A stretch of DNA of 64,000 nt from Algicola sagamiensis DSM 14643 (lineage in GTDB: Bacteria > Pseudomonadota > Gammaproteobacteria > Enterobacterales > Alteromonadaceae), in assembly GCF_000374485.1 (NCBI RefSeq), contig NZ_KB894498.1, positions 27,199 to 91,198 on the forward strand, given 5' to 3'. The position numbers were made by a program. Shown in pieces: positions 36,901-39,900 of the stretch. Within the stretch, counting starts at the first letter, position 1; the number at the start of each line of letters is the position of its first letter.

Positions 36901-39900
36901 CCTGGTTATGGTAAAACGACCTTAATTGAATACGTAGCCCATAAACTTGGTCTGGTGTTTATGAAAATCAATGGTCCATCGCTTGGACATGAAGTCACCT
37001 CACTTGACCCAAATGATGCGCCGGATCAAAATGCGGCAAGAGAGGTAGAAAAGCTCAATCTAGCACTAGAAATGGGTAACAATGTCCTGCTTTATATCGA
37101 TGATATTCAGCACACAAGCGCAGAGTTTCTGCAAAAATTTATCTCACTATGTGACGGCACACGAAGAATCGAAGGCTCGTGGAAAGGCGAAACCAAAACC
37201 TACGACATGCGCAGTAAGAAGTTTGCGGTTGTCATGGCGGGTAACCCTTATACCGAATCAGGCGAAGTATTCAAGATACCCGATATGTTGGCAAACCGTG
37301 CTGATATTTATAATCTCGGGGATATGCTCTCCGATCAAGCCGATGCGTTTGCAATGTCCTTCATCGAAAACTCGCTGACATCAAGTCCAGTTCTTGCTCA
37401 AATGTCAACACGCGATCTGAACGATCTTTATCGCCTTATCGCAATGGCTCAAGGAGAAAATGTCCCGCTTACTGATTTATCTTATCCATATGCCGCTGCG
37501 GAAGTGAATGAGATCACCGCAACTTTGGAGAAACTCTTAAAGATCCAAAAGACTGTCCTCAAAGTGAATCAACAATACATCGCTTCTTCTGCCACTGCAG
37601 ATGAATACCGAGTGGAACCACCGTTTAAGTTGCAAGGCTCTTACCGGAACATGAATAAACTGACAGAAAAAGTGTCAGCAGTCATGACCAATGAGGAGCT
37701 TAATACACTCATTACGGATCATTATCAAGGTGAAGCGCAAACGCTGACATCCGGTACAGAAGAGAATCTGCTCAAACTTGCTGATATTCGTGGTGATATG
37801 ACACCTGCTCAACAGGAACGTTGGCAGGAAATTAAGGAACGATATAGCCGAAAACAGCAGCTGGGAGATGATGACGACCGAGCAGGTCAGATGGTCAACC
37901 AAATGATCCATCTCAACCAATACGTAGGTCGCGCAGTCAAACGCCTAGAAAATATCAAACGGATGAGTGTGAGATCACCAAGTAAAACCTCACCTGAAGT
38001 GAAAAAGCATACAGTGAAACCTGGAAAAACGGTTTTGAAACAACAAAAAAGCAAAACCAGTTCACAAAAAACATCTTAATTGTTGAAAAGAACCTTCTAA
38101 AAAGGCCACTTCCCTGTGGCCTTGCTTCTCCAAGATGAAAAAAGTCTCAATAAAGATCACTCACCGATTAAAGCACGGCCTATCATCGCGCTTGAATACA
38201 TGACGCGTGATGGACCAAATGCACGTGTTGGTTTCCATACATTACTTCTTGCGACCGAAGAAGATGTTTTCACTAAGCTTGGCAAGGCTCGAGTTACTCC
38301 TGATTTTGGTGCAACTGCTTGACCATTCCTGGCTAATTCAATGACCTGCTTTCCGGTTTGGTTTGCTAAATTCTGTGCATAAGAATTCGAAAACCAGGTT
38401 GAGCCTTTAAATAGAGCTGCTCCCCCTTTGCCACTGATGGCAATACGCTGAAAGGGCATTTGCCCATTAAATGCTTGATTCAATGTCCTCGCAACAAACT
38501 TCGGGTGATAGTGAGCAACACTTGATGTTACCCTTAATGTTGTTTGGCCCGATCCTGAAGCAGATGACATCAGACTTGGATTTAAACTTCCTCGAAAGGA
38601 AGCTTGCGCGGCCGCCGTCACTCTAGCACCAGCCACCAGCGAGCCAATACCAGTCACAGCGGAAGCGATACCAAATGCTAGTGCCGCGTAGCCTAAATTC
38701 GCAGAAGCTTCCGGGTTTGATCCAGATACAGCTCCAGATGCAATTCCCAAAGCACCACTGACCGTCCCCGTAACACCAGCTGTTACAACTAAACCGGCCT
38801 TGATTGCCGCTGCCGTCGACATAGCAACCGCGCCAGAAATCAATCCCGCAGATGCTGCAATCCCTGATCCGAGTGTGACGACACCAATCAGTACTGCAAG
38901 AATGCCAAGACCAATTGCGACACCAGCCTGCCAACTTAAATGGCCCGTTGGATCAACAAGATTCACAGGATCGCCTAGGCAGTATTGATACCCATGGACA
39001 CCACCTTCCTTAAATGGACTCAGACTATCTATTTCGAGAAAACGCTTGAGCCGCGGGTGATATGCGCGATAGCCTTCTCCTAAGTGATACAAGCCCGTGA
39101 CGTGATCTTGCACTGCACCCGAAAAGCAGAGTGGATTTTTAAAAATATACATACCTTGAGTACCATTTTCCGCCAAAGAGAACAATGCAGCACTCGTTGG
39201 CATACTGGTACTGATCAAAGCACCCGCTGTTGCCAGCCAGGATGATTTCACGAGAAACTTTCTGCGAGATAAATCTGGTTTGTTTTCAACGGTTGTTCGT
39301 TGATAAACTGCTTGTTTTTTATCAATCACCATGATTAATACTCATTATCACGAACACCGAAATCATCCCAGTCCAGATCGTCATCTGTGTTGTGATCAAT
39401 CAGTTTTAAGTGAACCGAGTTTCCGTACTGATCAAAGACACGAAACTTTTGACGGAAATCATATCGATAGGAATCATCAGAGGTGGTATTCACATAGTGG
39501 CCATCTTGTTTGATTCGGCTACATATATTTCTAGAACCAACACGTGAGCAATGACGCCAATCATCGTAGGTCCCCTTCCCTTGAACAAATTTCACATTGT
39601 CAGTCGATAGAGGGAGGTCAAAGTGGTAATCTTCACGACCTTCTCCTTCGATGTTCCAGATACGAACATAGTCTTTGATAGTTTGACGCTGCACAGAAGG
39701 TTTATAGGGATAAAGGACGAGAGATTTCGCTACTCTACCTCGATTGATAATTGAGTGAAATCCACCGCCAGGACGAAAATAATCCACCGCTCTAAAAGAA
39801 TGTGTTGCTTCTTGTAATGGGTTGTCCCACTCTAGGCCATATACCTTGACATTGTTATCCTTCGGGGTCAGTTGCCAATATCCCACATACCATGTGTCTT

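Follow-up and report, generated by a model that had tools for sequence, protein, structure and literature searches.

Algicola sagamiensis, a marine bacterium of the Pseudoalteromonadaceae, encodes what appears to be an Rhs toxin divided between two genes, with a signal of the twin-arginine translocation (Tat) type on the half that bears the cargo, an accessory gene and no immunity gene. The system lies in a 64,000-nucleotide stretch of the genome of strain DSM 14643 (contig NZ_KB894498.1, positions 27,199 to 91,198; hereafter, the window), where an open reading frame (ORF) of 391 amino acids (aa) is annotated by NCBI only as an "RHS repeat-associated core domain-containing protein" (exact-sequence look-up). 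By its domain content, this ORF is the C-terminal fragment of a split Rhs protein, here called RhsC, and no complete Rhs toxin: it runs from a Tat-type signal through the last 64 positions of the Rhs core, a DPTGH motif and a hydrophobic module to a basic, Cys-free tail of 143 aa, and has no YD/RHS repeats of its own. The explanation that we favor, and to which we would give an even chance, is that RhsC, the repeat shell RhsN and the accessory protein make up a three-gene split Rhs toxin, whose membrane-inserting cargo would be delivered by a cage and exported pre-assembled through Tat. Both the Tat route and the membrane activity of RhsC are what we infer from the features described below (table 1).

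The division of the core domain is the central observation. RhsN, which is encoded two genes upstream of RhsC on the same strand, matches RHS_repeat (E = 3e-34) and YD_repeat_2x (E = 3e-17) and has neither a signal peptide nor a core domain. Its C-terminus, ending in AYQPYGKVSKP and the stop codon, contributes positions 1-12 of the Rhs core, and RhsC matches the core profile TIGR03696 (E = 8e-17, 61.5 bits, for a cut-off of 32.5 bits) at profile positions 13-76 only. When the C-terminus of RhsN was fused in silico to mature RhsC, the match to positions 1-76 was restored and the score rose from 64.2 to 71.7 bits, so that the core domain is shared out between the two proteins. Instead of the single polypeptide by which Rhs toxins are recognized, shell and core-plus-cargo thus have an ORF each in Algicola, Zooshikella, Spartinivicinus, Vibrio, and Aeromonas, and the RhsN homologs of Zooshikella, Spartinivicinus, and two Vibrio lineages end 2-5 residues after a (Y/F)xP(Y/F)G motif.

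These related loci were gathered by a scan of one genome per species, with a profile built on an alignment of 11 sequences, and by contig look-ups. Alongside the split loci, they include unsplit relatives in Pseudomonas, Paraburkholderia, Providencia, and Morganella, namely one-piece Rhs proteins of 1550-1670 aa with a core of the DSLSPF...DPTGH subtype, the N-termini of which align with RhsN from residue 1. For the pair Zooshikella harenae and Z. ganghwensis, the ratio of nonsynonymous to synonymous substitution rates (dN/dS) is highest in the signal (0.19), followed by the module (0.08), the core (0.06), and the tail (0.049), ratios that place all segments of RhsC under purifying selection. 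Judged by these ratios and by its conservation, the split Rhs is old, functional and under purifying selection, and not in decay; a pseudogene fragment was ruled out on the same two grounds.

At its N-terminus, RhsC has what looks like a Tat signal, with a clear motif, clear conservation and a borderline model score, and export is predicted on this basis. The SRRKFLV motif is followed by 20 uncharged residues and then by candidate cleavage sites of the AxA type (SAA/SLA); R23, R24, and F26 are invariant across 11 aligned homologs, the N-terminal flanks of which are variable, and the whole segment is missing from the unsplit relatives. Against TIGR01409, a very short model on which scores are accordingly borderline (curated cut-off of 16.7 bits), RhsC scores 14.8 bits and its homologs 12.8-16.6 bits, the best two reaching 16.4 and 16.6. 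A programmed fusion of RhsN and RhsC was considered as well and rejected, as the signal peptide would then be buried mid-chain. The full-text literature that we searched describes no Rhs protein with a Tat signal, with hitchhiker export or with such a split.

The accessory protein also bears on these signals. Its stop codon lies 2 nt from the start codon of RhsC, and what is conserved in its own signal is a site of the signal peptidase I (SPI) type (LAG|S) and not a lipobox, contrary to the earlier note on this DNA, which had taken the protein for a lipoprotein. A homolog accompanies every intact split locus, at a varying gene position and always with a signal peptide, and in several unsplit loci (Pseudomonas, Paraburkholderia, Providencia) a signal-less homolog is found immediately upstream of the Rhs gene. 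The signal of the accessory protein hence tracks that of the Rhs protein: a split Rhs with a Tat-type RhsC goes with a Sec-signal accessory, and an unsigned Rhs with an unsigned one, so that the whole system appears to have moved compartment together. In our view, no other indirect evidence speaks as strongly as this co-variation for genuine signals and for an accessory protein that would work together with the Rhs protein in a shared compartment. As for its function, the permuting position of the gene and the lack of a signal in unsplit relatives argue that it is unlike the cognate immunity gene of a polymorphic toxin. Neither a Pfam search with the accessory homologs (E ≤ 10, as for the signal, module, and tail) nor a PDB profile search with the protein gave a match, and a word-indexed search with the protein and its profile retrieved close relatives only.

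The autoproteolytic center is predicted to be intact. D102 and D127 of RhsC are invariant in the homolog alignment and align with D1141 and D1164, the catalytic aspartates (PMC10684867) of Tse5, an Rhs protein that cages a hydrophobic C-terminal domain able to form pores and carries this domain to membranes (PMC9637101, PMC10684867). The DPVNLVDPTGH motif ends on His131, and the P1 residue is indeed a His, as the earlier note had pointed out; what it had presented as unusual is nonetheless the norm in the Rhs clade of RhsC, where His stands in place of the usual Leu in about 90 of 98 core motifs. Because His is the rule in this clade and both aspartates are invariant, His131 is no sign of an unusual or dead protease, a possibility that we considered and ruled out, and cleavage after this residue is predicted.

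Directly behind this motif, the hydrophobic domain that had been proposed is present: in residues 132-248, the residues G, A, S, V, I, L, and T make up 88%, vs 50% in residues 1-131. The composition of the module is dominated by A (24%), G (18%), S (12%), V (11%), L (10%), and I (8%), its only charged residues are K178, E208, R237, and R247, and AlphaFold2 models it as three long helices (134-166, 173-202, and 207-248) with a predicted local distance difference test (pLDDT) score of 60-72. Its extent differs from the earlier estimate of about 170 aa followed by a tail of about 100 aa, the measured lengths being 117 and 143 aa, and the GxxxG/AxxxA spacing held to be characteristic of it does not exceed what composition alone gives. 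Indeed, in 5000 shuffles of residues 132-248, GxxxG occurred 3.5 times on average for 5 observed (p = 0.25), small-xxx-small 32.6 times for 36 (p = 0.14), and zipper triplets 6.3 times for 8 (p = 0.27). A G196-G200-G204 series is present and conserved glycines are spaced by 4 or 7 residues, G200 and G204 not being among the conserved ones.

A hidden Markov model (HMM) of the module finds matches in split and unsplit Rhs proteins of 7 genera, and in the unsplit proteins these stand directly after DP(S/T)GH. With 68-71% identity between Algicola and Zooshikella/Spartinivicinus, the module is the most conserved part of the protein, vs 54% for the tail. What follows the module differs among relatives: a tail of the window type, a tail with a His/Cys motif, Tox-HDC in a single protein of Aeromonas (P0010), or, in some Pseudomonas cassettes, only 36-46 aa. 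A conserved module followed by different tails therefore replaces the earlier description of the whole as a toxin with a tail of unknown function.

The tail of the window type is itself rare. A full-library HMMER search of 1.8 billion representative proteins returned 5 matches, of which 3 belong to the family itself and 2 are probably low-complexity or weak, so that the tail is not a widespread toxin domain. Its AlphaFold2 model has a pLDDT of 59.0, and fold searches with this weak model (pLDDT 59) retrieved only generic alpha/beta matches; neither tail nor module has a Pfam match at E ≤ 10, and a PDB sequence search with RhsC gave only a weak core match and a chance transmembrane match. The window tail does align with the His/Cys tails but has no Cys, and the tail of the sister species lacks the His as well. 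These His/Cys tails (locus L004, 9944..11185; the C-terminus in locus L007; proteins P0015, P0016, P0018, P0019, and P0021) share the pattern "VAHG ... (S/T)C.S..GG..S.AQ.LAN.TG..V", with an invariant His-Gly and an invariant Cys, and resemble a thiol peptidase of the clan-CD type; they may represent an undescribed toxin domain. They have no match in Pfam or in a PDB profile search, bar an unconfirmed one to Peptidase_C80 in 1 of 8 tails (E = 0.11), and an hhalign comparison with a Tox-HDC member was negative. A distant parallel to a core followed by a membrane segment is seen in PDB entry 9on3_A (SGS4, 3398 aa), where an Rhs-type core (..DPDGE) passes directly into a hydrophobic helix.

Two readings of the module can be drawn from this layout, and they are compatible with each other. 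The module may itself be the membrane-damaging agent, as the tail-less relatives, the degenerate tail of the window and the precedent of Tse5 suggest; or it may be a conserved membrane-entry device for variable tails, a reading favored by the conserved-then-variable layout and by Tde1, in which a glycine-zipper segment drives the membrane translocation of the effector (PMC10240207).

The genomic surroundings bear on how such a protein would be used. As the earlier note had seen, no immunity ORF follows RhsC: none fits into the 77-nt gap that separates its end from a convergent gene for a 1671-aa DUF3686/AAA ATPase. The same holds more widely, since neither a small membrane ORF nor a conserved gene was found downstream in 19 of 19 module-bearing loci, where the downstream genes are unrelated to one another (solute-binding proteins, efflux components and similar). 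Given this absence in 19 loci and the purifying selection, RhsC does not look like one half of a kin-discriminating toxin/immunity pair. In this regard, toxins with a Tox-HDC domain, which one member of the family carries, typically come without immunity genes and are predicted to act on eukaryotes (Zhang et al., PMC3482391). No PAAR, VgrG, Hcp, adaptor, or Tc (toxin complex) gene was found beside the relatives or among the 26 window ORFs scanned with Pfam on both sides of the Rhs cassette, in which those at 8459..11680 and 6734..15973 are not all included; in Pfam, RhsN shows neither a PAAR-like N-terminus nor an SpvB or TcdB-mid domain, and the neighbors scanned hold no TcA gene. The ORFs around the cassette are housekeeping genes (ftsH, glmM, recN, deaD, lptD, surA, pdxA, obg, and others by Pfam; dnaK and carA by exact look-up). 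Of the membrane-inserting T6SS (type VI secretion system) or colicin-like effector first proposed, the membrane-active domain is thus retained as a prediction, and the interbacterial T6SS/colicin frame, for which the scanned ORFs hold no T6SS gene, is not.

Putting these elements together, RhsN and RhsC would assemble in the cytoplasm and complete the core in trans, the 260-aa hydrophobic cargo would be enclosed in the shell, and the chain would be auto-cleaved after His131. The folded complex would then be exported by Tat on the signal of RhsC, with RhsN as a "hitchhiker," thereby sparing the membrane of the producer the greasy cargo; Tat would be the route, and immunity dispensable, because Sec would feed three hydrophobic helices into the producer's own membrane. 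In the periplasm, the Sec-exported accessory protein would meet the complex, and after release from the cell the shell would deliver the module to a target membrane, as experiments have shown for Tse5 (PMC10684867), and there the module would insert and depolarize the membrane and/or carry the tail across. No immunity gene would be needed for a toxin that is caged in its producer and the targets of which are probably not kin, and possibly eukaryotic. A bolder form of this proposal, which we advance tentatively and would sooner bet against, is that these loci represent a first class of Rhs proteins leaving the cytoplasm by Tat, in which an unsigned shell, closed around a membrane-inserting cargo, hitchhikes, the split would serve to put a Tat signal on a pre-caged toxin, the accessory protein would join in the periplasm, and no immunity would be required.

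Several observations weigh against the favored explanation. No member of the family reaches the TIGR01409 cut-off, the zipper spacing of the module is not separable from its composition, and the Pfam glycine-zipper families do not match the module even at E ≤ 10. A phmmer search against PDB sequences, Tse5 entries included, aligned the core only (E = 0.5), the presence of the Tse5 C-terminal domain as a separate chain in that set being unconfirmed. The models of RhsC are of low confidence (pLDDT of 54.7 for the whole protein), and the breakpoint rule is not absolute, since RhsN of Aeromonas runs on for about 250 aa past the shell. With 260 aa, the cargo is also big for a shell of some 1200 aa, the cargo of Tse5 having 149 aa. 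A hitchhiker complex of roughly 180 kDa would lie near the upper size known for Tat. Finally, the outer-membrane step is not accounted for and the target organism is a guess.

Other explanations have to be set against these data. If RhsC were a conventional interbacterial effector of the T6SS type, a Tse5- or colicin-like pore former with a small membrane immunity protein encoded elsewhere in the genome, then the hydrophobic cargo directly after the cleavage motif, the precedent of Tse5 (PMC9637101), and the relatives in which the module is followed by only 36-46 aa, so that it can be the whole C-terminal domain, would all be expected. We nonetheless regard this as very unlikely: RhsN lacks a PAAR-like N-terminus, neither the scanned window ORFs nor the surroundings of the relatives offer VgrG, Hcp, or an adaptor, the protein is split and bears a Tat-type signal, an immunity-like ORF follows in 0 of 19 loci, selection is purifying and not diversifying, and there is no sequence similarity to the C-terminal domain of Tse5. 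Self-protection could alternatively be provided by the accessory protein, acting as the immunity or neutralizing partner of the module in the compartment of the Rhs protein. It accompanies the Rhs in every intact split locus and in several unsplit ones, its signal peptide comes and goes with the export signal of the Rhs, a gap of 2 nt couples it tightly to RhsC, and it is conserved along with the module where the tails vary. This role seems quite unlikely all the same, as the accessory proteins are soluble and 320-620 aa long, when the known immunities to depolarizing toxins, such as Tsi5 and CdiI, are small membrane proteins (PMC9637101, PMC11630599); moreover, the gene mostly lies between the Rhs genes or upstream of them, the pattern would suit an adaptor, a chaperone, or a receptor-binding protein equally well, and no domain match provides a lead.

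The module might also be no weapon but a membrane anchor or translocation device, which after Tat export would hold the soluble tail, then the true effector, at the envelope of the producer or thread it through a target membrane. A conserved module in front of differing tails (Tox-HDC, His/Cys, window type) is the usual layout of an entry domain plus toxin, the tail is strongly constrained (dN/dS of 0.049), and the glycine zipper of Tde1 works in translocation (PMC10240207). We consider this unlikely, however, because some relatives have almost no tail, the tail of the window has lost the Cys (and that of its sister species also the His) and shows no recognizable fold or family, and an anchor on the producer side would render the Rhs shell and the autoproteolysis site pointless. 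As for the idea that the split merely reflects decay, an Rhs gene having been broken by insertion of the 410-aa gene into a non-functional remnant, it could invoke the orphan fragments that Rhs loci often carry, the RhsN gene of Vibrio aestuarianus cut by IS66 and the RhsC of Psychromonas lying among transposon debris. It is hardly tenable, being effectively refuted by conservation: five genera share the start codon and the Tat motif, and also the breakpoint, bar the extension of Aeromonas RhsN; dN/dS stays within 0.05-0.19; the genes are translationally coupled; and one Vibrio locus is split without any gene between the halves.

Further observations concern the related loci. In V. aestuarianus (locus L079, 5258..10014), IS66 and DDE transposase insertions truncate RhsN to 551 aa and leave RhsC and the accessory gene intact, and in Psychromonas aquimarina (L018) an RhsC with a Tat signal and a differing hydrophobic segment stands alone amid transposon remnants. 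The RhsN extension of about 250 aa at the C-terminus in A. salmonicida (L078, 3597..9917) consists of repeats with a "YFW.DGSYS.FD" motif, which also form the N-terminal half of the 617-aa accessory protein and recur in a 528-aa upstream gene, so that an unannotated repeat domain links shell and accessory protein in this species. In Pseudomonas (L044, 9608..18965; L024, L017, L019, L033, and L041), arrays of 3-5 consecutive cassettes of about 350 aa with the layout "PYG-core-DPTGH-CT" were found, each C-terminal domain (CT) being different and the gaps leaving no room for immunity genes; these arrays look like orphan toxin cassettes that belong to the clade of RhsC and have no interleaved immunities. 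A stand-alone SBP_bac_3 gene follows RhsC in Zooshikella and Spartinivicinus (L002, 11333..12097; L001, 11393..12166; L082, 11314..12099), and a similar gene of the window (49761..50525) is 10 kb off and non-adjacent, which likely reflects shared synteny and not a part of the system.

On either side of the cassette, two further features deserve mention. Just upstream of RhsN, the minus strand (44813..45412) encodes a protein of 199 aa that has a signal, a DM9 repeat, and a weak GLUG motif; it was considered as a fourth component. It is also present on a 99%-identical metagenome contig, but it does not stand beside the system in other genera and is probably no component. At the other end, a pair of plus-strand genes (30963..38079) converges on the cassette and encodes a 691-aa coiled-coil membrane-anchored protein without Pfam match, then the 1671-aa protein, the domains of which are DUF3686 ("ATPase involved in DNA repair"), DUF7902, and AAA. 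The bidirectional terminator that had been placed between the convergent genes is borne out in so far as the hairpin there lies between an A-run and a T-run and is terminator-like in both directions; it was not called by a consensus terminator scan, and the spacer as a whole folds in no unusual way (z = -0.9).

Table 1. Features of the split Rhs cassette in the window (coordinates of the window) and gene order in related split loci.
Feature	Position	Strand	Description
RhsN	40743..44474	-	YD/RHS-repeat shell, 1243 aa; WP_018692960.1
Accessory	39335..40567	-	410 aa, N-terminal Sec-type signal; between RhsN and RhsC; no known domain
RhsC	38157..39332	-	391 aa, C-terminal fragment of split Rhs; WP_018692958.1
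Tat-type signal (predicted), RhsC residues 1-50	39183..39332	-	S22-R-R-K-F-L-V, h-region SSWLATAGALISTSMPTSAA, candidate AxA sites
Rhs-associated core (plug and aspartyl autoprotease), RhsC residues 64-131	38940..39143	-	ends DPTGH131; TIGR03696
Hydrophobic module, RhsC residues 132-248 (117 aa)	38589..38939	-	composition, AlphaFold2 helices, HMM
Basic tail, RhsC residues 249-391 (143 aa)	38160..38588	-	16 K/R vs 2 D/E, no Cys, alpha/beta
Hairpin AAGGCCAC-TTCCCT-GTGGCCTT	38102..38123	.	8-bp GC-rich stem between convergent genes
Zooshikella (3 species), Spartinivicinus			order RhsN - accessory - RhsC, as in the window
Aeromonas salmonicida			order RhsN - accessory - RhsC, accessory larger
Vibrio metagenome-assembled genome			order accessory - RhsN - RhsC; the two Rhs genes overlap by ATGA
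Vibrio aestuarianus			order RhsN (cut by IS66) - RhsC - accessory

From a broader perspective, what is understood of Rhs toxins in Gram-negative bacteria comes almost wholly from T6SS delivery or Tc complexes, and the exit of the many "stand-alone" Rhs proteins from the cell has yet to be explained. For one clade, the split locus suggests an explanation that can be tested directly, with its fixed split of the core, its Tat-type signal, and a matching Sec signal on the partner. By its architecture, the set is a new variant of Rhs, split, Tat/Sec-signaled, accessory-dependent, and without an immunity gene, and its module is widely distributed but undescribed. The idea of Tse5 as a cage for a greasy toxin would thereby be extended to a sequence-unrelated, widely distributed module without an immunity gene, which points to targets that are non-kin and may be eukaryotic, both for marine bacteria and for fish and shellfish pathogens (A. 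salmonicida, V. aestuarianus). A natural two-piece Rhs capsule could moreover serve as a scaffold to load foreign cargo.

With respect to export, the proposed route has models in known systems. Hitchhiker export through Tat is known for hydrogenase-2 (HybO/HybC), and Tat export followed by type II secretion for PlcH of Pseudomonas aeruginosa with PlcR. As in the HybO/HybC type, a twin-arginine signal on one subunit would entail the co-export of an unsigned folded partner, which we infer from sequence for RhsC and RhsN; as in the PlcH/PlcR type, a folded toxin complex could leave the periplasm through another machine.

With respect to the cargo, the tail of the window aligns with the His/Cys group among the Tox-HDC/C80-like tails and differs from it in having no Cys. 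With the zipper of Tde1 and the ionophores of contact-dependent inhibition (CDI) systems, the module would share small-residue-rich helices that permeabilize or cross the inner membrane of the target (PMC10240207, PMC11630599), although neither is homologous to it; CDI ionophores further differ in their polymorphic membrane immunity and in a hydrophobic part that is C-terminal, when that of RhsC is N-terminal within the cargo, conserved and without an immunity gene.

With respect to the shell, the closest parallels are the Tc toxins and Tse5. In the TcB-TcC cocoon of Tc (ABC) toxins, too, the RHS capsule is built from two polypeptides, the C-terminal one of which holds the core autoprotease and a variable cargo, and Tc toxins likewise have no immunity genes and act on eukaryotic targets, which for RhsC are only possible. 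In contrast, the Algicola set has RhsN for the whole shell, with no more than the last 64 positions of the core left to RhsC, is without SpvB, TcdB-mid, or a TcA gene in the ORFs scanned, bears a Tat signal, and has a hydrophobic cargo instead of an enzyme of the ADP-ribosyltransferase type. From Tse5 (PA2684, RhsP1; P. aeruginosa), it differs in the size of the cargo (260 aa with an extra basic tail vs 149 aa), in the P1 residue (His vs Leu), in having no PAAR-like N-terminus, VgrG, T6SS context, or two-transmembrane Tsi5-like immunity gene, and in being made of two pieces with a Tat signal and an extra accessory gene. What the two have in common is an Rhs shell, a core with two catalytic Asp residues and, directly after the cleavage site, a hydrophobic C-terminal cargo without a predicted enzyme fold. 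Our best reading is thus that RhsC would be functionally Tse5-like with no detectable similarity to it in sequence, that it is probably not aimed at kin, and that its expected action, predicted here by analogy, would be the one described for Tse5, namely insertion into the target membrane and depolarization (PMC9637101, PMC10684867).

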